Positions 48,143 to 60,801 of a stretch of 64,000 nucleotides of DNA are shown here, in pieces; the first letter of the stretch is position 1; each line of letters opens with the position of its first letter. The DNA is taken from NCBI GenBank assembly GCA_963803705.1, contig CAWDNU010000001.1, positions 429,836 to 493,835 of the forward strand, written 5' to 3'. Below the pieces are notes generated by a model that saw only the letters and a program-made list of their open reading frames with translations, ran no database searches and was not told the origin of the DNA. The translations under genes and the position numbers were made by a program. The DNA comes from an uncultured Pseudobdellovibrionaceae bacterium. GTDB taxonomy: Bacteria > Bdellovibrionota > Bdellovibrionia > Bdellovibrionales > UBA1609.

Positions 48143-49060
48143 TTAGTAAATCTCCTTCGCTGCTTTTTTAAGTCGATTCAGAATTGCAGACCAATTTGGA
48201 TCATCAGCATCTTTATCCCACTCAATAATTAGAACATCAAAATTTTTCGAATTTTCAATTAGATTTTTATACAGAAACCGTGAAGCTATCTGAGGGTCAG
48301 GATTTAATTTTATCTCTTTGAATCTGGTGTCTTGAAACAAATTATAATCAATTTTACAGGATTGAAAAAGATGAAGAGGAGCATTTGGCTGATAGTGATC
48401 TTTCATGGAGCCTGGACCAGATAGGTCAAAGTTTTCAACAACTTCAAAAATTAGGCCTTGAGCTTTCAGAAACTTTCTCAGCTCGGCACAAGATATTTGA
48501 CCAGGACGAAGCACTTCTAATTTTTTATTACTTATTCTAACAATCGTGGACTCTAAACCCACTTTGCAGGGCCCGCCGTCAACAATATCTAGATAAGGAA
48601 AATATGTTCTTACGTGGATCGCATCTGTTGGACTTGTCTTTTTAAATGGGTTAGCGCTGGGGGCTGCAATAGGAACTTTGATTATAGTAATAATATCTTG
48701 AAGGACAGGGTGATCCGCCCATCTTATGGCCACCGTATCAGCACCAGCGGTGACTAGATCAGAAACAGAGTTAGGGTTCTTTTGAAAAACGATTGTCAGA
48801 GGACCTGGCCAAAATTTTTTAGCTAACGCTAGCAACAATGGGTCTGGCTTTGAAATATAATTATTTATCATTTCAATAGAATTGACATGGACGATCAACG
48901 GATCAAATAAAGGACGATCTTTTGTTTCAAAAACTTTTTTTAAACCGATTTCACTGTTAATTTTCGCAGCTAAACCATAAACAGTTTCAGTTGGTACTGC
49001 AACAACTCCACCGGCATTGAGAACATCAGTGGCTTGGTGGGTAGTTATAAAATCTTTCAT
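48143..49060 (-). CDS. tsaC: L-threonylcarbamoyladenylate synthase (YrdC domain plus Sua5 C-terminal domain)
   Basis: GGVVAVPTETVYGLA, KDRPLFDPLIVHV, SANPF blocks; 305 aa. Confidence 0.9.
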   Translation of the reverse strand: MKDFITTHQATDVLNAGGVVAVPTETVYGLAAKINSEIGLKKVFETKDRPLFDPLIVHVNSIEMINNYISKPDPLLLALAKKFWPGPLTIVFQKNPNSVSDLVTAGADTVAIRWADHPVLQDIITIIKVPIAAPSANPFKKTSPTDAIHVRTYFPYLDIVDGGPCKVGLESTIVRISNKKLEVLRPGQISCAELRKFLKAQGLIFEVVENFDLSGPGSMKDHYQPNAPLHLFQSCKIDYNLFQDTRFKEIKLNPDPQIASRFLYKNLIENSKNFDVLIIEWDKDADDPNWSAILNRLKKAAKEIY

Positions 49061-49122
49061 TGCTCTGCCTTGATCTGCACAGTGGGTGACAGAAGGGGAG
49101 TTATATATGTAAAGTTAAGCTT

Positions 49123-49602
49123 ATGAAAGTTTTATTTGTTTGTTTAGGAAATATTTGCAGGTCACCTACTGCTGAAGCGGTTCTTAAATTTAAAATTGCA
49201 GAGAAAGACATGGGTGATTTAGTTCAGTGTGATTCTGCTGGGACCTCTGCATTCCACGAAGGGTCTAAAGCAGATATTAGGTCCTCTAATCACGCCAAAC
49301 TAAGGGGATACAACTTAACAAGTGTATCTAGACAGTTACAAACTGATGATTTTTTTGAGTACGATCTAATATTTACAATGGATGATTCTAATTTTGATAA
49401 TGTTCGTGAGCTTGGTGATTCGATCAAAGCCGATCTTTCAAAAGTTAAAAAGTTAACAGATTTTTGCGTTAAGCATGAAATAAACCATGTGCCCGATCCC
49501 TACAAGATGGGTGACGAAGGGTTCGAACAAGTTTTGGATATTATAGAAGATGCTTGTGAACAGATCCTGAAAACAGTGATATTGCCAAACTTTAAAAATT
49601 AA
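49123..49602 (+). CDS. low-molecular-weight protein tyrosine phosphatase
   Basis: VCLGNICRSP P-loop and DPY motif. Confidence 0.88.
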   Translation: MKVLFVCLGNICRSPTAEAVLKFKIAEKDMGDLVQCDSAGTSAFHEGSKADIRSSNHAKLRGYNLTSVSRQLQTDDFFEYDLIFTMDDSNFDNVRELGDSIKADLSKVKKLTDFCVKHEINHVPDPYKMGDEGFEQVLDIIEDACEQILKTVILPNFKN

Positions 49603-49760
49603 TTGTTACATTTTATGTTCAAATAGATATACATCTTAATAGGCTCAAACAAGCATTGGCATTTGACCTGCAAAATAAGGCAGGCCTTCATGCCAAAGAA
49701 CTCGCTATTAAGATGTATATCTATTTGAACATAAAATGTAACAATTAATTTTTAAAGTTT
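49587..49760. repeat. long hairpin element: 56-bp perfect arms around a conserved 62-nt core
   Basis: Arms 49587-49642 and 49705-49760 are exact reverse complements. The left arm includes the last 13 coding nt and the TAA of the LMW-PTP gene. The core 49643-49704 is homologous to 37369-37426. Confidence 0.9.
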
Positions 49761-49767
49761 AGCGATA

Positions 49768-50562
49768 CTATTTTTGACAATTTGGACAGTAGTAAGTCGA
49801 TCTGCCCGCGATTGTTTTATTTAAGATTAATGTTTTGCAATCAAAACAAGGTTTACCAGCTCTAGCGTAAACTCGCCAGAAGATTTGCATTCCGCCAGAT
49901 TTGCCATCAACATTTTTATAATCTTTCAATGTGCTGCCTTTTAAGGTGATTGCTTGATTTAAAACTTTAGTAATTTCAGTAAAAATTTTTATCCAATGAC
50001 TTAGCTTTAGTCTATTGACGACCTTAGATGGTTTGAGGCCAGCTCTAAACAAGATCTCTGAAGCATAAATATTGCCTATTCCAAGAATATTGTTCTGGTT
50101 CATTAAAAAGTTTTTGATATTGGTTTTTGAGTGCTTATGTTTTCGAAAAAAATCAGAAACATCAATTCGATCTTCGATTGGATCGGGACCAAACTTTTCA
50201 AAAATTTTTGATGTATAATCCAAAATATAGCCAAAGCGTCTTGGATCGTTATAAATCAGTTTCTTGTCAGTCCAGGAAAATACTAAATGGTCGTGTTTTA
50301 CAGGCTTGTATTCACTTTCAAAACGCCAGTGTCCGGTCATACCCAAGTGGGATATAAAGCTTAGTCCAGTGGTTTCAAATATTAAAAATTTACCGCGCCT
50401 TTTAACAGATATGAAAGACATACTTTCTATCGCCTTCAAAGTTTTGACGGGCATTAGAAATCGCAGGTCTTTTCTATTAAGTTTAACGTCAATAACTTTG
50501 GACTTGGACAAACCTTTTGTAAGTCCTCGCCTGACTGTCTCTACTTCTGGTAATTCGGGCAT
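49768..50562 (-). CDS. mutM: formamidopyrimidine-DNA glycosylase
   Basis: MPELPEVETVRRGL N-terminus and C-terminal zinc finger CFDC..CPNC. Confidence 0.92.
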   Translation of the reverse strand: MPELPEVETVRRGLTKGLSKSKVIDVKLNRKDLRFLMPVKTLKAIESMSFISVKRRGKFLIFETTGLSFISHLGMTGHWRFESEYKPVKHDHLVFSWTDKKLIYNDPRRFGYILDYTSKIFEKFGPDPIEDRIDVSDFFRKHKHSKTNIKNFLMNQNNILGIGNIYASEILFRAGLKPSKVVNRLKLSHWIKIFTEITKVLNQAITLKGSTLKDYKNVDGKSGGMQIFWRVYARAGKPCFDCKTLILNKTIAGRSTYYCPNCQK

Positions 50563-50650
50563 AAGTTCAATCCAGGTATAAGATCAACTTCTAGCTCTTT
50601 TAAGCAAACTAGTCAGGTAGTTTATTAGCACTGACCATTAGATATATGAT

Positions 50651-50872
50651 TTAATCTTCAAACAGATGATACTGCTGATCTAAAGAATCAAAATATAATT
50701 TAACGTTTTTTCCGTTTCTACTTTGAACTCGGATTATATTACGCCCTCTGGTAGAATCCCATGGGTCAAAGGCTGAATTATCAAAGCCAGAATTAGACCT
50801 TTGATTAGAAGAGTCTTCATAAAAAAGATCAATCTGATCGTAGTTATAGGCTTGAATTTTATTTTTATTCAT
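50651..50872 (-). CDS. hypothetical 73-aa protein co-oriented between lexA and mutM
   Basis: ATG 18 nt after the lexA stop, preceded by AGAGGAG; no family recognised. Confidence 0.5.
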   Translation of the reverse strand: MNKNKIQAYNYDQIDLFYEDSSNQRSNSGFDNSAFDPWDSTRGRNIIRVQSRNGKNVKLYFDSLDQQYHLFED

Positions 50873-50890
50873 AAATCTCCTCTTTGTTTT

Positions 50891-51541
50891 TTAAGATCTC
50901 GAGTAAGTTCGAATTAGACCGACTACTAATCCTTGTAAAGTAATTTGATGAGGCTCATACCACATTGATTCCATCTCTGAATTAGCAGGTCGAAGTTCAA
51001 CTTGACCTTTTTTATAAAAAATACGCTTAACAGTGGCAGACTCGTCGTCTGTCGAAATGACTGCAAGACTGCCATCGGGCGCAAAGGATCTTTTTTCGAT
51101 AATAACAAGATCCCCACTGTTGATGCCTTCGTCGATCATAGATTCACCTTCCACTCTAAGCACAAAGCTTTCTTTTGGCTTGTGAACTAAGTTCATTGGA
51201 ACTTCGACCCATTGATCAAAGTTTTTTTCTTCCAAAGGGAGGCCGGCCGCCACCTTCCCAAGCAAAGGAAGAGTGACGGCTACGGAGGGTTTCTCCATCA
51301 GATCTGCGAGATAATCTGATGAAGTCTTCAAAAGTTTTAGTGATCTTTTTTCGTTAGCTTGGCCTTTTTTTACGTAGCCTTTTAGTTCCAACTGCTGAAT
51401 GTAGCGCTGGACAGAATTGATACTTGCAAATCCAAAATTATTTTGGATCTCTGTAAAAGTTGGCGAAATACCATGATTTTTAACATAGGACTCAATATAT
51501 TCTAGAGTCGCTTTTTCTTTCGAGGTGAGTGATCTGGCCAT
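50891..51541 (-). CDS. lexA: LexA repressor
   Basis: N-terminal winged HTH (SPTFTEIQNNFGFASINSVQRYI), cleavage site VAAGLP, S24 peptidase Ser (GESM) and Lys (VKR) blocks. Confidence 0.93.
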   Translation of the reverse strand: MARSLTSKEKATLEYIESYVKNHGISPTFTEIQNNFGFASINSVQRYIQQLELKGYVKKGQANEKRSLKLLKTSSDYLADLMEKPSVAVTLPLLGKVAAGLPLEEKNFDQWVEVPMNLVHKPKESFVLRVEGESMIDEGINSGDLVIIEKRSFAPDGSLAVISTDDESATVKRIFYKKGQVELRPANSEMESMWYEPHQITLQGLVVGLIRTYSRS

Positions 51542-51569
51542 CCTTAAAGTCCTTTTTTCTTAAATTCAT

Positions 51570-51612
51570 TATGTGTAAGTTTGATTGGTATATATGTAAG
51601 TTATATGTAAGT
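51570..51612 (-). promoter_or_regulatory. three direct repeats ACTTACAYATA in the lexA leader (candidate operator/promoter)
   Basis: Plus-strand TATRTGTAAGT at 51570-51580, 51591-51601 and 51602-51612. Spacing is 21 and 11 nt. Located 29-71 nt upstream of the lexA ATG. Confidence 0.4.
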
Positions 51613-51846
51613 TTAGAAATTGGGAAGAACTTTCTGACATGGGTAACACTTTGGGCCAGGGACATAGGTAATTGCTATAATTCAGGGTTTTTGAGGAACC
51701 GGTGCCTTGGAAGGGTGTTTAAGCAAAGTGCCAGCTCGATTGTTTTACTTAGTGTAATACATAAGTAGCGATCCGCTGATTTCAGGATCTGAATTGATAT
51801 CAACTCTTTGAAAGGATCCTGTAAGTTGTAAGCTTGTTGAAAGAGT

Positions 51847-52155
51847 TTATGCACCAGTATTTGTTTCGCAGGCGTTTCTAGCTGGCCCAGCATTTACCTT
51901 ATCAATGCAATCATAAATACTAACAAAGCTTTGTTTGAAATCTGAAGCCAAAAAACTACCGATACTTTCAAAGATTTGCTCTCCTATACCCAGAGAAGAC
52001 ATATCCACTGTTGTTTGAAGGTGGAGAGGTCCCACGGTCATTACAGCTTTCTTACACTCACTGACTCTACGTGGGGGCAATGGCTGCATAACATTGAGAA
52101 TATAAGGAGTAAGTTGGCTCACGTTTGCAAAATTTGTCACATCAAGATTAAGCAT
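51847..52155 (-). CDS. hypothetical protein (102 aa), doubtful
   Basis: Longest ORF in the 736-bp gap between lexA and ung; no obvious RBS; no homology recognised. Confidence 0.25.
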   Translation of the reverse strand: MLNLDVTNFANVSQLTPYILNVMQPLPPRRVSECKKAVMTVGPLHLQTTVDMSSLGIGEQIFESIGSFLASDFKQSFVSIYDCIDKVNAGPARNACETNTGA

Positions 52156-52277
52156 TGAAGCGAAAGTAATAATTACTTTAGGGCAGCCCTAATTTTTGCA
52201 CCATGGAAGGAACAACAATTGATCTTCTCTAGAATTTAATGAAGACAAAAAACTAGATAAGTATTAGGGTCTTTTCC

Positions 52278-53030
52278 ATGAGTCAGGACTTAACTGCGCA
52301 AGATCAAATAGACTTATTTAAATCTCAAAATAAAGCTATAAACTTTATTAAAACTTTATTTGGAGCATCTGAACTATGGTTTAAAAAACTCAGAACTGAG
52401 TTCGACAAACCTTACTTCCTAAAATTACAAGATTTTTTGAAAACCGAACGAACCAAAGGTACAAAAATTTATCCAGATTCAAAGAATTATTTTGAAGCTT
52501 TTAGGCTTTGTTCTTTCGACTCGACTAAAGTTATCATCTTGGGTCAAGACCCTTATCATGGACCAGGTCAAGCCCATGGACTTAGTTTTTCAGTTCCAAA
52601 AGGACTAAAAATTCCCCCTTCTTTAGTAAACATTTTTAAAGAGCTTTCCTCTGATTTGAACGTCACTATCCCAAAGTCTGGGAACTTATCTAGTTGGGCA
52701 TCAAGCGGCGTTTTGCTTTTAAACACAGTTTTGACTGTAGAGGCACATAAGCCGGCTTCACATAAAAATCTAGGTTGGCAGTTATTTACTGACAAAGCTA
52801 TAAGACTTTTAGTCGAAGATAACCGTCCTAAGGTTTTTATTCTTTGGGGATCTCATGCACAAAACAAGAAAAAAACTATAGATTTCAAAAACCATTTAAT
52901 ACTTGAAGCTCCGCACCCATCGCCGTTATCAAGCTACAGAGGTTTTTTTGGCAGTCGGCCATTTTCAAAAGCCAATGAGTATCTTGTTCAGTCCAATAAA
53001 AAACCTATTGATTGGGACTTGGCTGACTGA
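52278..53030 (+). CDS. ung: uracil-DNA glycosylase
   Basis: GQDPYHGPGQAHGLSF and HPSPLS motifs. Confidence 0.93.
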   Translation: MSQDLTAQDQIDLFKSQNKAINFIKTLFGASELWFKKLRTEFDKPYFLKLQDFLKTERTKGTKIYPDSKNYFEAFRLCSFDSTKVIILGQDPYHGPGQAHGLSFSVPKGLKIPPSLVNIFKELSSDLNVTIPKSGNLSSWASSGVLLLNTVLTVEAHKPASHKNLGWQLFTDKAIRLLVEDNRPKVFILWGSHAQNKKKTIDFKNHLILEAPHPSPLSSYRGFFGSRPFSKANEYLVQSNKKPIDWDLAD

Positions 53031-53083
53031 AATTAAAAAGGACTACTCGCAAGCGCTGAATCAATCTATAGTAGCATCTAAGC

Positions 53084-54112
53084 ATGATAAAGAAATTCTT
53101 AGGTCCATTCAAAGAAAAAATTCTTATTGTTGATCACCTTAAGCCTAGCCTTTTTGAATCAAAACACAGTTTGCTTTTTATTGATGAAAATTTAAAGAAT
53201 TTTGACGAGATCAAAAGATTGAAAGCAAAACATCAGATCTTCTGGTTAAAAGCCGGGGAAGATCTAAAGTCAATCGACGCTTTGAAATCTGTATTATCCT
53301 CTATTGAACCTTCATTGAATAAGCTTCAACCTCCTTACTGCTTTGTTGCCATTGGCGGAGGAAGTCTTGGCGATTTTTGCGGATTTTTAGCAAGCGTCTA
53401 CCACAGAGGTGTGGATTTTGTTCAGTGTCCAAGCACGTGGCTTGCCGCTATAGATTCGTCTCATGGCGGGAAGACGGCTTTAAATGTCTTGAATTTCAAA
53501 AATCAGATCGGAACATTTTATCCAGCAAAACAGATTATCGTTTCGAAATCCTTATTGGCTAACCAAAGCCCTTCTGAAGCTATGGGCGAAATCACGAAAA
53601 CTATTTTATTATCTAGCCAAAACTCAAAGTTAAGAAATTTTGTAAAAAAAGCTTGGCAGACTGATACTGATAATGTCTGGGCGTCTATTACGGATTTTAT
53701 TAAAGTTAAAAATTCTTACGTTAAAAAAGACCCCACAGAAACAAAAAAAGAACGCTTTAAATTGAACTTGGGTCACACTGTGGGCCATGCTTTAGAAAAG
53801 GTATATGGCTTATCTCACTCAGAAGCCGTTCTTAGAGGAGTGATTTTTGCTGTCACCTGGAGCGTTAAAAAAAAATACTCACACAGCAGAATTTTGCAGG
53901 TGCTTATACATTTTATAGAGGCCAACCATTTTTTTCTTAAATCTTTGCCCCAAAAACCCATGGCTATTTTTGAACAAGCATTGTTGAAGGATAAAAAAAG
54001 AGCAGGCCAAGATATTAATTTTGTCTTTTTAAAGAACTTTAAAGCCGTGGTAAAAAAAGTTAAAGTGAATGATATAATCAAAGAGATGAAAAATCAGGAC
54101 CTAATTAAATAA
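53084..54112 (+). CDS. aroB: 3-dehydroquinate synthase
   Basis: GGGSLGDFCGFLAS nucleotide-binding block and metal ligands in GHTVGHALE. Confidence 0.85.
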   Translation: MIKKFLGPFKEKILIVDHLKPSLFESKHSLLFIDENLKNFDEIKRLKAKHQIFWLKAGEDLKSIDALKSVLSSIEPSLNKLQPPYCFVAIGGGSLGDFCGFLASVYHRGVDFVQCPSTWLAAIDSSHGGKTALNVLNFKNQIGTFYPAKQIIVSKSLLANQSPSEAMGEITKTILLSSQNSKLRNFVKKAWQTDTDNVWASITDFIKVKNSYVKKDPTETKKERFKLNLGHTVGHALEKVYGLSHSEAVLRGVIFAVTWSVKKKYSHSRILQVLIHFIEANHFFLKSLPQKPMAIFEQALLKDKKRAGQDINFVFLKNFKAVVKKVKVNDIIKEMKNQDLIK

Positions 54113-55521
54113 TGAACTCAACTGGTGCGTTTCGATACTCGGGTCCTCTAGAAAGCTCGAAGTCTATTGTTAACCGAGCATTAATACTGCAGGCCATACA
54201 TCCATCGCTTGAAATAAAATATTCAAGCCACGCACAAGATGTACTTGACCTGAAAAAAGCGGTTGAAAATTTTAAAAATTTTCAAAATAAGAAACCTGAC
54301 ACTGACATTACTATTTGTTTTGACGCTGGAAGCGGCGGGACTACTTTTAGGTTTTTCGTGATTTACTTGTCAAAATATCTAGGTCGATGGTCTGTCAAAT
54401 TATCAGAGTCTTTAAAAAAAAGACCCATGGAAGACTTAATACAGCTTTTAGAGCAGCTAGGCTCAACTGTGTCGCCATGTTTTCTTATGAACAAAAATAC
54501 AGATGTTAAAATAAATCAGAATATTGAAATAAAGGATATATCAAAAACAGGTCCATCATTTTTTCAATTTCAATCAAATTTTTGGAACACTCAAGAGGTA
54601 TCGGTAGATTTTTCAAAGTCGTCACAATTTTTTTCAGCTTTAGCATTGGCGGCCTCAGACTCAACCTCTACCTTTCTAATTAAGTGTCTAAATAGAGATC
54701 AAAGTTCGGGTTACGAAAACATAACTCTAGAGCTATTAAAAAAAGTTGGGGTTGATGTAAAAGATAACATAGACACAGTAGAGATCCGAAAAAATTCTGA
54801 CCAACCCGCAGTAGAATTAGATTCAAAACATAGACAGATTTATGAACCAGCCCATAAGTCAATTATTGAATCAATTCGTGAACCCAAACGTAAACCCGCT
54901 CATATTAAAACGATAGACGTTGGTGCAGATTGGTCTTCCATTATATATCTGCTTAGTTTTTGTTTTTCAGGATCTACGATTGAAATTACAAATGTCGACC
55001 TTGATTCCAAAGAGCCTGATCTAAAGGGTCTTAAATTTTTAAAGGACCTGGGTCTAAATTATAAGATAAAAAAATCTAGTTTGTTTTCAGTTTTAAGCTG
55101 TGAACCAAGCTGTTTAAAGCCGGATATTCTAAGCTTTAATTTAAAAAAGAATCCTGATCTATTTCCAGTGATAGTTGTTTTATTAAGCCAGTTGTCGTTG
55201 CAATATTCTAAAGAAGTCTTCATAGAGTACCCAGAGCAGCTGATATTTAAAGAATCTGATCGCCTAAACACCATGGTTTCAGCCTTGAAAAAACTAGGTT
55301 TCACCATTAAAGCTAAAGATTCTAAACTATCCCTTATAGCTGGCACATCTGATCAAGAAATAACAAAAGCAACAGATTATATTCTTGATTCCAAACTGGA
55401 TCATAGAATTATTATGGCCTACGAGCTGTTAAAATCTTTCGGTTACAAGATAAAGTACGAAAACAAAAAGGAAGTTCAAAAGAGTTTTTCAAACTTTTTT
55501 GCAATTATTAATGGATCCTAA
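54112..55521 (+). CDS. aroA: 3-phosphoshikimate 1-carboxyvinyltransferase (EPSP synthase)
   Basis: SSKSIVNRALIL, GSGGTTFRF, RPMEDLIQLLEQLG, DHRIIMAY blocks. The ATG overlaps the aroB stop (TAATG). Confidence 0.85.
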   Translation: MNSTGAFRYSGPLESSKSIVNRALILQAIHPSLEIKYSSHAQDVLDLKKAVENFKNFQNKKPDTDITICFDAGSGGTTFRFFVIYLSKYLGRWSVKLSESLKKRPMEDLIQLLEQLGSTVSPCFLMNKNTDVKINQNIEIKDISKTGPSFFQFQSNFWNTQEVSVDFSKSSQFFSALALAASDSTSTFLIKCLNRDQSSGYENITLELLKKVGVDVKDNIDTVEIRKNSDQPAVELDSKHRQIYEPAHKSIIESIREPKRKPAHIKTIDVGADWSSIIYLLSFCFSGSTIEITNVDLDSKEPDLKGLKFLKDLGLNYKIKKSSLFSVLSCEPSCLKPDILSFNLKKNPDLFPVIVVLLSQLSLQYSKEVFIEYPEQLIFKESDRLNTMVSALKKLGFTIKAKDSKLSLIAGTSDQEITKATDYILDSKLDHRIIMAYELLKSFGYKIKYENKKEVQKSFSNFFAIINGS

Positions 55522-57460
55522 TACTAACAAGTTTCTTATTATAGGGCACAGGGGGGTTGGCAAAAGTTCAATCATTAAGGACCTGAAAGCAAGCCAGAAG
55601 AGCTACCTATGTTACGACTTAGACGAGCAAGTAGAGCTGCGTAGGAAAGTTAAAATTCAAGAACTTTTTCGAGATGGAAAAATTAAAGAATTTCGAAAAT
55701 TAGAACACGAAATTTTAAATGAGATAATCTCACAGTTCGAGCAAGATACTTCATCTAAAGAAAAAAATAGAATTAAATTTAAAAAATTATTTGTTGCACT
55801 AGGCGCTGGATTTGAAATAGAGAAACTAAATAAACCAGATGATTCGTCTATCTTATGGGTGCGACGCAAAACCGATGAAGCAGGCCGAATATTCTTTGAT
55901 AGACCAAGCTTGACTGGAAACTTAAATCCGCTGAAAGAGTGGGCCGAAATTTTCTATAAAAGACAAAAAAAATATTCTGACTTTTCCACAGCACAATTTT
56001 ACATACCCGAAAACTTAGAATCAGTATTAGAATTCTTTTTAAAGTTTTTAGAACCAAGAAAAATAAAAACTGGCTACGTGACATATATACCCAATGAAAA
56101 TGACTTTATCATTCACAGCGGCAGGCACAATATAGAGCTTCGAACTGATCTGGTGCCTTTTGACAAAATACTAAATATTTTAGGTTCAAAATTAAATAAT
56201 AATTTTAATATAACTTATATTTTAGCCATTAGGGGTCGCGATCAGGTTGCCAAACTGTTAAAAGCTTTGAAAACTAAGCTCAATAATCGAAGTACCAAAT
56301 TGCTAGTTGATTGGGATATGTCGCTGGACTACCCACCTTCAGCTATAGGTAAAATTATAGATATTTATTCGTCTCATAGCCAAACCCCGGTAGCAGATGT
56401 GCTTAATTTTCAGCATCATTTAACTGAAAAATTTAAGTCAAAAAACAAAAAAAAAGTCCACTATAAACTTTGCCCAAAGGTTGCTAGCCACGAAGCCGCT
56501 GTAGAATTGGACTTAGAATTAGAAGACCTTCTGGTCGACTTCAGCTACTCATTTTTGCCTAGGTCTGAAGTTGGATTTAATCTGTCATACTTTAGACAGC
56601 TTAAGTCTTACCGACAAAAAATTGGATTTTACCGATTTGGTGATGGATCTTCATCCGACCAACCCCTGTGGTTTGAATGGCCAGATCGCAAACCCAAAGG
56701 CTTTTATGGCATATACGGCAATAATATTAGTCACAGCTTAACACCGGCTTATCACTTTAAATTTTTTAAGTCTAAAAGTTTGTGGCCAATTTCGATAGAC
56801 GGATTTGATCGTTTTTTTGACTATGTGCCTTACTTTAAAAACCTGGACTTAAAGACTTTAGCCGTCACTTCGCCTTACAAGAAAACAGCTTATCTAAACA
56901 CAGTCTTTAAAGACAAAGCAAAATTAAAAAAAGAAGTAGATTTTAATCTTAGTTCAGGATCGAGAGGTACTTTAGGACTGAAAAATCCAAGCCATTTGAA
57001 AGATTTTAAATCTGCCAATACTGTTGTTTTAAACATCGAGACCGAGTCTTTTAACACCGACTATATGGGGCTTTGCTTATTTTTGAAAAGGTCTTTGACA
57101 AAAAACCTACCAATTCTAGTTTGGGGTGGGGGATCGCTCTTGGAACAATTAAAAGATCTGCATCCACAAGCATTTTTTTATTCTGCTCGCACAGGCAAAC
57201 CAAGAGATTCTAGCAGCGAAATCAAAACAACAGCTGGAACAGACATTCAAATAATTTGGGCAAGTGGTGAAAGGGGTCTAGACCCGTGCGTACTGCAAAA
57301 TAAAATTAATATCAAAAAAATTATAGATCTAGATTATCGAAAAAATTCCAAGGCTAGGCTTTACAGCTTTTTAAATTCCATTGACTATACAAGTGGTTAC
57401 AATTTTTTTACCGAACAAGCGCTACTACAGCAAAAGGTATGGGACACTTATGAGTTTTAA
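55511..57460 (+). CDS. trifunctional shikimate kinase / type I 3-dehydroquinate dehydratase-like / shikimate dehydrogenase fusion
   Basis: N-terminal GHRGVGKSS Walker A plus FRKLEHEIL. Middle IELRTD, YSSHSQTP and HYKLCPKVAS (type I DHQase-like His and Lys blocks). C-terminal GIYGNNISHSLTPAYH, AVTSPYKK, SANTVV and VWGGGS (AroE). Confidence 0.78.
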   Translation: MDPNTNKFLIIGHRGVGKSSIIKDLKASQKSYLCYDLDEQVELRRKVKIQELFRDGKIKEFRKLEHEILNEIISQFEQDTSSKEKNRIKFKKLFVALGAGFEIEKLNKPDDSSILWVRRKTDEAGRIFFDRPSLTGNLNPLKEWAEIFYKRQKKYSDFSTAQFYIPENLESVLEFFLKFLEPRKIKTGYVTYIPNENDFIIHSGRHNIELRTDLVPFDKILNILGSKLNNNFNITYILAIRGRDQVAKLLKALKTKLNNRSTKLLVDWDMSLDYPPSAIGKIIDIYSSHSQTPVADVLNFQHHLTEKFKSKNKKKVHYKLCPKVASHEAAVELDLELEDLLVDFSYSFLPRSEVGFNLSYFRQLKSYRQKIGFYRFGDGSSSDQPLWFEWPDRKPKGFYGIYGNNISHSLTPAYHFKFFKSKSLWPISIDGFDRFFDYVPYFKNLDLKTLAVTSPYKKTAYLNTVFKDKAKLKKEVDFNLSSGSRGTLGLKNPSHLKDFKSANTVVLNIETESFNTDYMGLCLFLKRSLTKNLPILVWGGGSLLEQLKDLHPQAFFYSARTGKPRDSSSEIKTTAGTDIQIIWASGERGLDPCVLQNKINIKKIIDLDYRKNSKARLYSFLNSIDYTSGYNFFTEQALLQQKVWDTYEF

Positions 57461-58466
57461 AAATACATTTGGTGCACTTTTCAGGGTGCATAGTTTTGGT
57501 GAAAGCCACGGTCCATCAATAGGAGTTGTGATAGACGGCTGTCCAGCAGGGCTTGTCTTAGATGAAAAAAAAATCAACAAATTTCTTGAACGTCGTCGTC
57601 CTGGTCAAAATGAATTTGTGACTTCAAGAAATGAGCCTGATCAATTTAAGATCTTAAGCGGACTGTTCGAAAATACAACTTTAGGAACACCGCTGGCGTT
57701 TGAAGTTTTAAACTTAGATAAGCAATCTAAAGATTACGATAATTCAAAACCTAGAAAAGGGCATGCAGACTCTGTATGGAAGCTTAAATTTGGACTGGCT
57801 GATCATAGGGGCGGCGGAAGGTCTTCTGGCAGAGAAACCCTAAGCCGTGTTTTAGCTGGTGCAGTTGCACGCATGCTTCTTGAAAAACTTTGTCCAAAGC
57901 TGTCAGTGATGGTTTGGATTGACAGTGTGGGTCCAATAAAAAACAGCTTAGAGTTTTCTGATTTCAGATCCACTTTTAAGATTTATGAAGGGTTAGCTGC
58001 GGATTTGGGATTTCCAGATTGTTTAAGAACTAATGATCTAAAAGCTTTATTAAAAGATGCCAAAGAAAATGGTGAAAGCTACGGTGGGGTAATCAAGGTA
58101 AAAGTTCAAAACTTATTGCCTGGTTTAGGTCAGCCTGTTTTTTCTAAGCTAAAATCCGATCTTGCGTCAGCTATTTTTTCAATCGGAGCTGTGCAGGGAA
58201 TGAGCTTAGGTGAAAAAAATGTCAATTTGAAAGGCACAGAATTTCACAGCCTTGATGCTCCATATGGAGGTATTCAGGGTGGCATATCAACAGGTGCAGA
58301 TATTGATCTTGAAATATTGTTGAAACCAACATCTAGTATACTGGACACTGCTAAACTCGGCCGACATGACCCTTGTATTCTACCGCGCGCGCTAGTGGTG
58401 ATAGAATCCATGATTTGCCTTGTTTTAGCTGACCATTTGCTTTTGTCCCGCGTTGATCGCATTTGA
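57450..58466 (+). CDS. aroC: chorismate synthase
   Basis: [50 protein letters not shown] blocks. Start moved to ATG 57450. Confidence 0.93.
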   Translation: [338 protein letters not shown]

Positions 58467-58473
58467 GGGTTTA

Positions 58474-59850
58474 ATGAAATGCTTCTTAGTCTTATGTTGC
58501 TTTAGTCTATCCAGCTGCGCTTTCTTTTCTTCTGATTTAAATAAAATTAAAAATGACCATAAGGTCGAGTTGCTTCGGCATCAAGAAAAAGATCTTCATC
58601 CATTTGCTATAATTCAGGGGCTAACAACTGAGTCATCAACAGAAATCAAGGTTATTGCTAAAACAGTAAAAGAAATAAGTTTTAAGCTTTTTTACAACGA
58701 AAAAGAAATTAAAACGATAAAAGTGGTAGATACCGAAGCCGGCAAAACTGGATATACAATCTACAACTTAATTATTTCAAGCTTAAAAATCGACACCAAC
58801 TACACATTGCAGGTTATAGAAAAAAATATGATTGCAGATCAGCGTAATTTTCAAACTGTAAATTTGGAAATGGTGCATCCTAACATTGGTGTTGTGTCTT
58901 GCATGCATGACAAATATAAAACGACCCAGTTTAAAATGTGGAATGATTATCTAAAACAAAATCCAACTTATACCTTTATGATTGGTGATAACGTTTATGC
59001 GGACACACTTATTCGGTCGGGCCAAAAAAAGTTTATTTTTAAATATGCAACGGAAGCAAATTTGTGGAAAAGATATATTCAGACCTTTAAAACATTGTCT
59101 TACTACCGTGCATCCAGATTAGTGCCAACTTTAGGCATTTGGGACGATCATGATTACGGGTACAATAATGGAGACGAGTCTTATCCATACAAAGCAGAAT
59201 CTTTAAAAGTCTTTCAAGCTTTCTATGGCTTCAGCTCAGAGGCCTTAAAGTCTAAAAAACCCGTGGTGAGTCCACTTGAAGGTGCTGGATACGTTTTTAA
59301 AGCTTTCGGTCAAAATTTTGTTTTTATAGACAATAGAACATTTAGATCCAAGTCTTTAAAAACTGAAAAAAAGAATGAGACTCATCTTGGCCCAAAACAA
59401 ACTGCAGAAATAATAAATATTTTGAAATCAAAGATACCTACCTGGCTTATTAAGGGTGATCAGTTTTTCGGAGCTTATCATAGATTTGAATCATTTGAAG
59501 GCGATCATCCTAATGACTTTTCAAATTTCTTGAGCGCGATCAAAAAAAGCTCTTCCAGGGTGCTATTTGTAAGTGGAGATCGCCACTTAAACGAGTTGAT
59601 GAAAATTGAAGAAGAGCTTTTGGGATACGAGACCTTCGAACTTACTTCAAGCGCCATACACGCGGCTATTTTTCCAAACGCTTGGAAAAAAAACCCAAAC
59701 AGCAGGCAAGTTCAGGGTTTTTCTGGAATTCACAATTACTCTGTTGTCAAAATACAAAGTGTTTCCCCCTGGGCGCTTACTGTGACTTCATATGGTCCTG
59801 ATCTAAAAGTATTATTTCAAGAAAATTTAGAAATAGGACAAAAAAAATAG
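58474..59850 (+). CDS. PhoD-like phosphatase/metallophosphoesterase lipoprotein
   Basis: Lipobox LSSC; GDNVYAD, WDDHDYGYNNGD and SGDRHLNE metallophosphatase blocks. Confidence 0.8.
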   Translation: MKCFLVLCCFSLSSCAFFSSDLNKIKNDHKVELLRHQEKDLHPFAIIQGLTTESSTEIKVIAKTVKEISFKLFYNEKEIKTIKVVDTEAGKTGYTIYNLIISSLKIDTNYTLQVIEKNMIADQRNFQTVNLEMVHPNIGVVSCMHDKYKTTQFKMWNDYLKQNPTYTFMIGDNVYADTLIRSGQKKFIFKYATEANLWKRYIQTFKTLSYYRASRLVPTLGIWDDHDYGYNNGDESYPYKAESLKVFQAFYGFSSEALKSKKPVVSPLEGAGYVFKAFGQNFVFIDNRTFRSKSLKTEKKNETHLGPKQTAEIINILKSKIPTWLIKGDQFFGAYHRFESFEGDHPNDFSNFLSAIKKSSSRVLFVSGDRHLNELMKIEEELLGYETFELTSSAIHAAIFPNAWKKNPNSRQVQGFSGIHNYSVVKIQSVSPWALTVTSYGPDLKVLFQENLEIGQKK

Positions 59851-59873
59851 TTTTATTTTTTCTGCCCTATTTC
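59830..59873 (+). terminator. AT-rich hairpin terminator candidate overlapping the PhoD-like stop codon
   Basis: gaaataggacaaaaaaaa at 59830-59847 pairs 16/18 with ttttttctgccctatttc at 59856-59873. The loop tagtttta contains the TAG stop. Confidence 0.45.
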
Positions 59874-59936
59874 GTTGTTGGAAATGAAATTTTATTCTAA
59901 CATTAAAATTTGCTCACTTAAAGGCAGGTTATTTCT

Positions 59937-60332
59937 ATGGAAAGTGTGTTTACTAAAATTTTAAACAATGAGCTTCCATCTTTTAAAGTCTTCGAAGATG
60001 AACATACATTTGCGATCCTGGCTTTAAACCAAATCCAGCTTGGGCACACTCTGGTGATATCTAAGCGGCAAGAAGACCATTTTTTTGAACTAAACGATGA
60101 AGAGTACATTGCCTTAATGAGAACTACAAAAAAGTTAGCTATTGCCATAAAGAAGGCAACAGGTTGTCATCGTGTCTGCACTTTTTTTCAAGGTTTTGAA
60201 GTTCAACATGCTCATCACCATCTAGTTCCAACTCAATCGGCAAAGGATTTTAATTTGTCGATGCAGACTCAAAGGTCGACTGAGGATATGAAATTTATTC
60301 AAGCTAAAATTATCTCGGCTCTGGAAAATTGA
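59937..60332 (+). CDS. HIT-family nucleotide hydrolase
   Basis: Histidine triad HAHHHLVP; GHTLVISKR block. Confidence 0.85.
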   Translation: MESVFTKILNNELPSFKVFEDEHTFAILALNQIQLGHTLVISKRQEDHFFELNDEEYIALMRTTKKLAIAIKKATGCHRVCTFFQGFEVQHAHHHLVPTQSAKDFNLSMQTQRSTEDMKFIQAKIISALEN

Positions 60333-60336
60333 TCTG

Positions 60337-60801
60337 ATGAGGTCAGCTGTAATCCTTAGTTTTTTGGTAATCTGTTCTACATCGCTTGCAGGAATCGTAG
60401 TCAGACCATCTTTTGGAATAAGCGCTGGGGAATATCAAGAACAAACTTTTAGTGAGATTAAAATTGGTGGTGCGATTCATTTTATTCAAGCGCCTTTTGC
60501 AATTCAACTTCACGGCTTTAGAAGATTTGCCAGGCAAGCTGATGATTTTTACGGTTTAGAATTAGACTTGAAAATTAAAAGGCAGTTTAAGGTTTCGAAC
60601 GATTATTTATTTGGAACTTATTTTGGTCCCGGATATAGGTACGTTAGCCGAGATCTTGATGCCCCAACTTTGGATTTCTCCTTTGTATTATCTAAAGCTA
60701 AAATATATAGTATATTCTTGGGCTACAAAGTGATTATGTTAGACTGGATGAGCAATGATTTCCAAAATGACAGTCTAGTATATTTGGGCGTCCAGCTTTA
60801 A
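60337..60801 (+). CDS. hypothetical secreted protein
   Basis: Signal peptide-like MRSAVILSFLVICSTSLAG; no family recognised. Confidence 0.45.
   Translation: MRSAVILSFLVICSTSLAGIVVRPSFGISAGEYQEQTFSEIKIGGAIHFIQAPFAIQLHGFRRFARQADDFYGLELDLKIKRQFKVSNDYLFGTYFGPGYRYVSRDLDAPTLDFSFVLSKAKIYSIFLGYKVIMLDWMSNDFQNDSLVYLGVQL

Follow-up and report, generated by a model that had tools for sequence, protein, structure and literature searches.

Why are the five enzymes of the AROM polypeptide arranged in the order in which they are found, and by what route was such a polypeptide assembled? In AROM the domains run from 3-dehydroquinate synthase (DHQS) through 5-enolpyruvylshikimate-3-phosphate (EPSP) synthase (EPSPS), shikimate kinase (SK), and 3-dehydroquinate dehydratase, or dehydroquinase (DHQase), to shikimate dehydrogenase (SDH) (PMC6851490). 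These two standing questions are raised anew by a 64-kb stretch of DNA from an uncultured Pseudobdellovibrionaceae bacterium of the predatory type (contig CAWDNU010000001.1), referred to in its entirety as the window, which contains a chorismate operon, aroB-aroA-aroKDE-aroC, with the same succession of activities, B-A-K-D-E. The original prediction had called attention to this collinearity with AROM and to its departure from pathway order, and both are borne out by the order of the genes and domains. It had further proposed that the locus might be a prokaryotic precursor, or a recipient, of the AROM arrangement. The analysis presented here points elsewhere. We consider it probable (roughly 75%) that this is an ordinary chorismate operon of the Bdellovibrionota, whose order and stepwise fusions parallel those of AROM by convergence and are of independent origin.

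The genes, domains, and motifs of the operon are provided in Table 1. Note that aroB, aroA, and aroKDE are three separate open reading frames, each with its own start and stop, rather than one five-domain polypeptide. As can be read directly in the sequence, the genes overlap at every junction. The aroB stop and the aroA start share the pentanucleotide TAATG at 54110-54114 (1-nt overlap), the ATG of aroKDE at 55511 lies within the last codons of aroA, the TAA of which occupies 55519-55521 (11-nt overlap), and the ATG of aroC at 57450 precedes the TAA of the fusion at 57458-57460 (11-nt overlap). The reading frames and overlaps are as originally predicted. That earlier account had also mentioned other frameshifts in the window, which might suggest that the fusion or the overlaps are artefacts of assembly or frameshifting, a notion that is now scarcely credible. 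Over the 7950 nt from 52511 to 60460, the window and a second assembly (Logan, run ERR12040027) differ by 1 mismatch, with 0 gaps, and the latter yields the same four gene calls. A protein identical to the window AroKDE, with the same gene call in the second assembly, is on record as P0001, and the same 338-aa aroC call is also found at locus L081. Moreover, the same architecture is present in hundreds of independent genomes, and the 11-nt KDE/aroC overlap, together with an 8-nt aroA/KDE overlap, recurs in relatives that are only 46-50% identical. Because the second assembly agrees and the overlaps recur, the gene boundaries are regarded as real and free of frameshift artefacts.

Table 1 Features of the aroB-aroA-aroKDE-aroC operon (window coordinates)
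Feature	Position	Strand	Evidence
aroB, 3-dehydroquinate synthase (342 aa), step 2	53084..54112	+	Pfam DHQ_synthase 98 bits, DHQS_C 69 bits
aroA, EPSP synthase (469 aa), step 6	54112..55521	+	Pfam EPSP_synthase 91.6 bits
aroKDE, 649-aa trifunctional fusion (predicted), steps 5, 3, 4	55511..57460	+	
Shikimate kinase domain (aa 1-170)	55511..56020	+	Pfam SKI 33 bits (cut-off 22.1)
Walker A, GHRGVGKS	55544-55567	+	
DLD (kinase domain)	55616-55624	+	
Type I 3-dehydroquinate dehydratase domain, divergent, predicted (aa 185-395)	56063..56695	+	Profile, AF2 fold, invariant residues
ELRTD	56135-56149	+	
H289 codon	56375-56377	+	
K319 codon	56465-56467	+	
Shikimate dehydrogenase domain (aa 396-649)	56696..57457	+	Pfam Shikimate_dh_N 25 bits, family profile
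ISHSLTP	56726	+	
TSPYKK	56867	+	
NTDY	57053	+	
WGGGS	57122	+	
aroC, chorismate synthase (338 aa), step 7	57450..58466	+	Pfam Chorismate_synt 310 bits

When the window fusion was used as a single query against the PDB, only weak SK matches were obtained, and thus profiles built from alignments of its family were needed. In the N-terminal domain the Pfam SKI match spans residues 18-79, and the same model is matched by 43 of 43 family members. Among SK structures, the family profile matches 2pt5 with 65 bits and 1kag with 61 bits. Residues G12, G15, G17, K18, D36, D38, and R62, along with the lid arginines R131 and R151, are invariant in the 43 homologues. All of the features sought in an SK are in place, namely SKI above threshold, a Walker A motif, the DxD shikimate-binding motif, and the lid arginines. 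With regard to the C-terminal domain, the window protein alone scores 2 bits below the Shikimate_dh_N cut-off of 27, and 42 of the 43 family members are matched by the model. The family profile aligns full-length to AroE structures (89 bits for 2hk9, for example), and S409, K457, N503, D517, G539, and Q636, together with the WGGG loop, are again invariant. The substrate-binding N domain and the Rossmann domain, the catalytic lysine and aspartate, and the glycine-rich NADP loop expected of an AroE are all present.

Between the kinase and the dehydrogenase there is no Pfam or NCBIfam match in the window protein. The gathering threshold of PF01487 (DHquinase_I) is not reached by it, and only one of the 43 homologues is matched (E=0.009). 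A profile of this domain only, built from 28 sequences, matches the type I DHQase 2ocz with E=0.008, and in that alignment the E-x-R-x-D segment, the next arginine, the S-x-H segment, and the lysine fall on the corresponding DHQase motifs. An AlphaFold2 (AF2) model of the domain, with a pLDDT of 88.5, was compared with the PDB using Foldseek. Its ten best matches are all type I DHQases at a TM score of about 0.6; the matches include 2yr1, 6sfh, 1sfj, 6hqv, and 2egz, with the enzymes from Geobacillus, S. aureus, and Aquifex and the DHQase domain of AROM among them, and unrelated TIM barrels start only at E>0.1. The domain is thus predicted to adopt the (beta/alpha)8 fold of the type I DHQases, with an identity to known DHQases of 12-16%. 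For the whole protein, the model (pLDDT 89.9, pTM 0.89) can be aligned over its entire length both to Chaetomium AROM and to the SK+DHQase+SDH portion of Candida Aro1, with E values of 1e-20 to 1e-19. Seven residues, E209, R211, R241, H289, K319, R362, and Q384, are invariant in 43 family members having a mean column identity of 29%. We take these to be the Glu/Arg/Arg/His/Lys/Arg/Gln set of the type I enzymes, with K319 as the Schiff-base lysine and H289 as the general base, presumably equivalent to K170 and H143 in the Salmonella numbering.

As judged from profile and model, the middle domain belongs to the type I dehydroquinases, though as a very divergent member, and from the invariant catalytic residues we infer that all three domains of the fusion are active. 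The original assignment of a kinase, a DHQase-like middle, and a dehydrogenase is confirmed by the Pfam/HMM scan, the profiles, and the model, and its reservation that the middle region might possess no DHQase fold is answered by the nature of the best structural matches. Likewise, the motifs it quoted, GHRGVGKS, SSHS (H289), HYKLCP (K319), ISHSLTP, TSPYKK (K457), and WGGGS, all lie on residues that are invariant in the family. It could be argued that the middle domain has no catalytic role and serves as a spacer or scaffold, dehydration being performed by the product of another gene. Its near invisibility to DHquinase_I and its low identity to known DHQases would fit such a role, and there is a precedent in Candida albicans Aro1, the DHQase domain of which is inactive (PMC9074039). 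That domain, however, has lost the catalytic lysine (PMC9074039), which is kept in the bacterial family, and the seven mapped catalytic and substrate-binding residues have remained invariant in sequences of about 29% mean identity. In addition, neither aroD nor aroQ turned up in the window, nor were they seen in the 8-kb flanks, although no search aimed at them was made. A dead middle domain is therefore considered unlikely.

Taken as an operon, the four genes are probably coupled in translation through their overlapping stop and start codons. AroB would produce dehydroquinate, upon which AroKDE is predicted to act in steps 3, 4, and 5 by way of an active type I dehydroquinase, an SDH, and an SK. 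AroA and AroC would then complete the pathway, such that the six activities of steps 2-7 would be housed in four genes, with the 3-deoxy-D-arabino-heptulosonate 7-phosphate (DAHP) synthase of step 1 encoded elsewhere. With the order and the overlapping stops and starts in place, single insertions or deletions could fuse neighboring genes.

For a comparison with AROM, P0338 served as the AROM sequence in blastp searches, with E. coli K-12 AroA, AroB, AroK, and AroE as references. This 1028-aa protein, which came from the search with the AroB+AroA profile, is encoded at L085 1245-4331 on a 4.9-kb ENA metagenome contig with 3x coverage. Having the composition DHQS-EPSPS-SK, it is the only B-A-K protein found, and it could be mistaken for a bacterial tri-fusion. 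It was rejected as such because it is a truncated eukaryotic AROM: it scores 817 bits to 6hqv, is colinear with residues 81-1010, and ends after the kinase domain. P0338 is 40.5% identical to E. coli AroA (278 bits) and 44.5% identical to E. coli AroB (218 bits), whereas the corresponding values are about 25% (111-114 bits) for the AroA and 30-32% (85-86 bits) for the AroB of the Bdellovibrionota. Between E. coli and the Bdellovibrionota the identities of AroA and AroB are 20-35% (55-112 bits). Bootstrapped neighbor-joining (NJ) trees were calculated with 200 replicates from 38 EPSPS and 25 DHQS sequences. AROM grouped with E. coli in 90% (EPSPS) and 91% (DHQS) of the replicates and with the Bdellovibrionota in 0% for both trees, the latter being monophyletic in 74% (EPSPS) and 99% (DHQS). 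Fungal AROM SK and SDH-N fragments, taken from the profile-versus-PDB alignments, displayed the same pattern, with 54-70 bits to the E. coli and Aquifex enzymes versus 22-55 bits to the Bdellovibrionota KDE proteins.

The PDB rankings of the family profile, the window AroB, and AroA lead in the same direction, in that AROM is never the nearest relative of the bacterial domains taken one by one. For SK the bacterial structures score 65-50 bits versus 47-51 bits for AROM, the latter figure including the linker. For SDH the Aquifex enzyme scores 89 bits over its full length versus 41-53 bits for AROM over the N-terminal half only. For DHQS the Vibrio enzyme scores 111 bits versus 64-77 bits for AROM, and in the ranking for the window EPSPS, AROM is 19th of 24. 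With the DHQase domain profile only bacterial enzymes were detected. The top PDB match of P0078, a less divergent protein in which EPSPS is joined to K-D-E, is Chaetomium AROM at 125.6 bits, a score that is the sum of two domains. It is followed by single class I EPSPS structures at 121-90 bits, with those of class II at 38-50 bits, and this ranking shows only that the AroA of the Bdellovibrionota is class I-like.

On the evidence of these sequences, the enzymes are not specifically related to the AROM domains, and the reading preferred for the shared order is accordingly convergent assembly, through chance or selection, rather than descent. Shared ancestry with AROM is not supported. The data lend no support to the Bdellovibrionota as donors of AROM and, within the limits of NJ and of the sampling, argue clearly against them as recipients. 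The phylogenies by domain that the original prediction had recommended, run here as NJ trees of DHQS and EPSPS, show no affinity to AROM, and with AROM alongside E. coli in 90-91% of replicates its suggestion of a precursor or recipient is not supported.

The extent to which the order is fixed can be gauged from relatives of the window. A word-indexed search retrieved 170 proteins with the K-D-E fusion, and an exhaustive search with the family profile gave 1204 clusters at 50% identity (E<=1e-30), a number not split by architecture; the best 150 of these 1204 are all of the K-D-E family and 540-680 aa in length, save one of 975 aa. The fusion is present in at least 184 GTDB species genomes, 80 of which, each as a species-representative locus, provided the lineage titles and the synteny described here. 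Among these 80 listed loci are complete genomes of Bdellovibrio sp. HCB strains. All titles that name a lineage read Bdellovibrionales, Pseudobdellovibrionaceae, Bdellovibrio, Bdellovibrionota, or Oligoflexia, three generic or legacy labels aside. The synteny between the window and L001, which extends from a uracil-DNA glycosylase gene through a PhoD-like gene, likewise supports the placement of the operon in the Bdellovibrionota. The order B-A-KDE-C is found in 49 of the 80 loci and a contiguous B-A-KDE in 56, and a further seven display A-KDE cut by a contig end. In 12 loci aroB lies directly before KDE and aroA is elsewhere (B-KDE-C-A, A-C..B-KDE). The AROM-like order is dominant in these loci, not obligatory, so that the survey of synteny suggested at the outset finds the order to be common and, in those 12 loci, broken. 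The relocation of aroA argues against a strict constraint on order.

Further fusions are found in the same phylum. P0078 (971 aa), a match of the KDE search, is an EPSPS fused in frame to K-D-E, and a profile from two such A-K-D-E proteins retrieved 30 of them, 968-1056 aa in length and down to 35% identity, some encoded on contigs of 2-3 Mb. Their junctions are of several types: KSFPEFW followed by about 10 residues and IGHRG; ...VEGDxxRxAxIGHRG; and ...MEQMSIHPRIPAWIFIGHRG. On a rough NJ tree of the KDE region the A-K-D-E proteins fall in at least 12 groups. A single origin for them was rejected because they are scattered over that tree and differ in their junctions, a pattern suggesting that genes have fused or split repeatedly where stop and start overlap. 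Indeed, the existence of several junction types shows that neighboring genes have been fused repeatedly. A search with a concatenated AroB+AroA profile yielded P0300 (731 aa), a B-A fusion whose KDE gene starts 3 nt later, and thus B|A|KDE, B|AKDE, and BA|KDE stand side by side within the phylum. No penta-fusion, that is, no protein of at least 1100 aa with all five domains, was seen among the matches listed for the KDE, A-K-D-E, and B+A searches, which were word-indexed and non-exhaustive and, for the profile, comprised the best 150 of 1204 clusters. A family of B-A fusions (P0301-P0337, 724-770 aa) occurs in metagenome-assembled genomes (MAGs) labeled Bacteroidota. At L083 7001-9313 the gene has those for M16 peptidases and a glycosyltransferase as its neighbors, with no other aro genes adjoining. 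The domains of these proteins cluster with the AroB and AroA of the Bdellovibrionota (74% and 100% bootstrap), a hint that genes were transferred from one phylum to the other. The automatic JGI name of these fusions, "pentafunctional AROM polypeptide," is misleading.

How, then, is the coincidence with AROM to be understood? Five units would fall into exactly this order with a chance of 1/120, a figure that rises to about 1/24 when D-E is counted as one pre-existing unit. For a single lineage such a match is unlikely by pure chance, and this is one of several points that weigh against convergence. The trees are of the NJ type with few bacteria from outside the Bdellovibrionota and one AROM, a truncated metagenomic fragment, protist AROM being left out; the comparison with AROM covers four of the five domains, DHQS, EPSPS, SK, and SDH. 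Both the middle domain and the window AroA are very divergent and lie below the curated Pfam/NCBIfam cut-offs, and a true relationship could be masked by rapid evolution among the Bdellovibrionota enzymes. Given the many bacterial lineages, the match in order is notable, not beyond chance. Selection on the order could also act, through the assembly of a complex, for example. If the order is an adaptive assembly order that was reached twice, then AroB, AroA, and AroKDE may form an AROM-like complex.

An account by descent would hold that an ancient bacterial B-A-K-D-E operon, retained in the Bdellovibrionota, seeded the AROM of the eukaryotic stem and that divergence has since erased the signal. 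The exact, non-pathway collinearity speaks for it, as do the intermediate states of fusion (KDE, AKDE, BA+KDE), all of which exist in the phylum, the class I-like character that AroA shares with AROM, and the fact that the family profile runs colinearly from SK into the ELRxD motif of the AROM DHQase across a spacer of similar length. Set against this are the grouping of AROM DHQS and EPSPS with E. coli rather than the Bdellovibrionota, identities of 40-45% to the former versus 25-32% to the latter, the like pattern in the SK and SDH fragments, the lack of a penta-fusion among the matches listed, and the 12 of 80 loci in which aroA lies elsewhere, such that even within the phylum the order varies. 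Such an ancient donor is in our view quite improbable. Still less can be said for the reverse transfer, in which an AROM gene of eukaryotic origin would have been taken up by the Bdellovibrionota and divided into three. It has only the shared order in its favor, whereas the closest relatives of the bacterial domains are bacterial enzymes rather than AROM, the DHQS and EPSPS of the Bdellovibrionota cluster with the Bacteroidota B-A fusion clade, and within the phylum the K-D-E family is of long standing and highly diverse. Uptake from a eukaryote is thus already largely refuted and carries very little weight beside convergent assembly within the Bdellovibrionota.

The operon can be compared with several known systems. 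With AROM/Aro1 of fungi and protists (PDB 6HQV, 7U5S, 7TBV) it shares the five activities in the same non-pathway order and a fused SK-DHQase-SDH portion, the AF2 model of which aligns full-length to the corresponding Aro1 fragment with E of about 1e-19. Unlike AROM, the bacterial system consists of three polypeptides, with at most four domains fused in relatives; the relative orientation of the domains in the AF2 model differs (TM 0.27); the domains are not phylogenetically close to those of AROM; aroC is next in the operon; and the host is bacterial. The DHQ-SDH enzymes, both plant (PDB 2GPT/2O7Q) and bacterial (AroDE, NF006802), similarly carry a type I DHQase N-terminal to SDH in one chain. 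The bacterial model superposes on Arabidopsis DHQ-SDH over the D and E domains (TMt 0.62, about 527 columns), and the family profile aligns over D and E in one stretch with 79 bits. In contrast to DHQ-SDH, however, the fusion described here adds an N-terminal SK and its D domain is far more divergent, with scores of 13-35 bits for NF006802 versus a cut-off of 598. The AroK-AroB fusions (NF010556, NF010627) also join a bacterial SK to another enzyme of the pathway, but they are K-B rather than K-D-E, and both models are far below their cut-offs here. Finally, the Bacteroidota B-A fusions possess the B-A order of the N-terminal half of AROM and of P0300, but stand alone, with no K, D, or E gene adjoining at L083.

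Multifunctional shikimate enzymes as such are already known, AROM, plant DHQ-SDH, and AroK-AroB being examples. The bacterial K-D-E, A-K-D-E, and BA+KDE forms in the AROM order seem to have been neither described nor curated. The K-D-E proteins are named "shikimate kinase" or "hypothetical protein" by NCBI and "shikimate kinase" or "shikimate 5-dehydrogenase/shikimate kinase" by JGI. One of them, P0282 from an Oligoflexia MAG, is called "shikimate synthase" by NCBI, an odd name, which suggests that its multi-domain nature was seen by the annotator. With the exception of aroC, none of the window proteins attains the cut-off of an NCBIfam model, and neither do P0080, P0078, P0300, or P0320, although NCBIfam does hold curated models for other aro fusions. 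A full-text search found no paper on bacterial K-D-E or A-K-D-E fusions; an earlier mention in the literature on the origin of AROM is possible. It had been foreseen that the order and fusion might prove common and already catalogued in bacteria. Common they are, within one phylum, but the cataloguing amounts to automatic names, with neither a curated model nor a paper.

According to the structural work on C. thermophilum AROM, the polypeptide has no higher metabolic throughput in vitro than its isolated domains (summarized in PMC9074039). Here, one bacterial phylum reaches the AROM order with tri-, tetra-, and bifunctional intermediates and with repeated fusion at overlapping junctions. It thereby offers a natural and genetically tractable series in which to ask whether function constrains the order and what advantage comes with fusion, and should be useful both to work on AROM evolution and to that on Bdellovibrionota metabolism. 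Hundreds of proteins labeled only "shikimate kinase" are predicted to be trifunctional, and because the D domain escapes Pfam, reconstructions of Bdellovibrionota metabolism that lack aroD and aroE are probably wrong. Were the improbable ancient operon to prove true after all, the phylum would preserve living fusion intermediates (B|A|KDE, BA|KDE, B|AKDE) of a eukaryotic supergene.

With respect to the remaining genes of the operon, the window AroC scores 286 bits with TIGR00033, above the cut-off of 212. AroB falls below the cut-off of TIGR01357 (198 bits versus 305), and its best PDB relatives are bacterial DHQS enzymes (3okf, 111 bits, for example). AroA falls below that of TIGR01356 (141 bits versus 287). 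Its translation contains the motifs SSKS, KKRP, SSQF, NPDLFP, KESDR, DHR, and KSF, but it is very divergent, with 20% identity to E. coli AroA (55 bits) and a Pfam match split into two stretches, and it is unusually long at 469 aa versus about 385-430 in relatives. Additional sequence is observed near residues 225-270 (KHRQIYEPAHKSIIESIREPKRKPAHIKT), and the catalytic motifs still look present.

Upstream of aroB lies a uracil-DNA glycosylase gene (52278-53030) and downstream of aroC one for a PhoD-like phosphatase (58474-59850), both on the same strand as the operon and separated from it by short gaps. The former recurs at L001, L005, L012, L016, L033, L079, and other loci and the latter at L001, L002, L012, L016, L041, and L079, and the aro genes may be part of a longer transcription unit. 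A hairpin at 59830-59873, with a 20-bp stem and T-rich flanks on both strands, is situated at the end of the PhoD-like gene and may act as a bidirectional terminator by which the cluster is closed. A scan of 51500-60500 for promoters and terminators gave sites no more numerous than in shuffled sequences. No DAHP synthase gene is found in the 64-kb window; a DAHP_synth_1-family gene, of the DAHP or 3-deoxy-D-manno-octulosonate 8-phosphate (KDO8P) synthase type, lies at L082 10626-11462 and in the flanks of 38 of the 80 loci. A UbiE-like methyltransferase and a chorismate-binding enzyme are encoded near the aro operon in many Bdellovibrionota, and neither has a match in the 64-kb window. Farther upstream, and going by sequence motifs, we tentatively take the reading frames at 48143-49060 (-), 49123-49602 (+), 49768-50562 (-), and 50891-51541 (-) to encode TsaC/Sua5, a low-molecular-weight phosphotyrosine phosphatase, Fpg/MutM (N-terminus MPELPEVE), and LexA, respectively. 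Together with the uracil-DNA glycosylase, the reading frames of 48143-51541, if these identifications hold, would form a small DNA-repair neighborhood.

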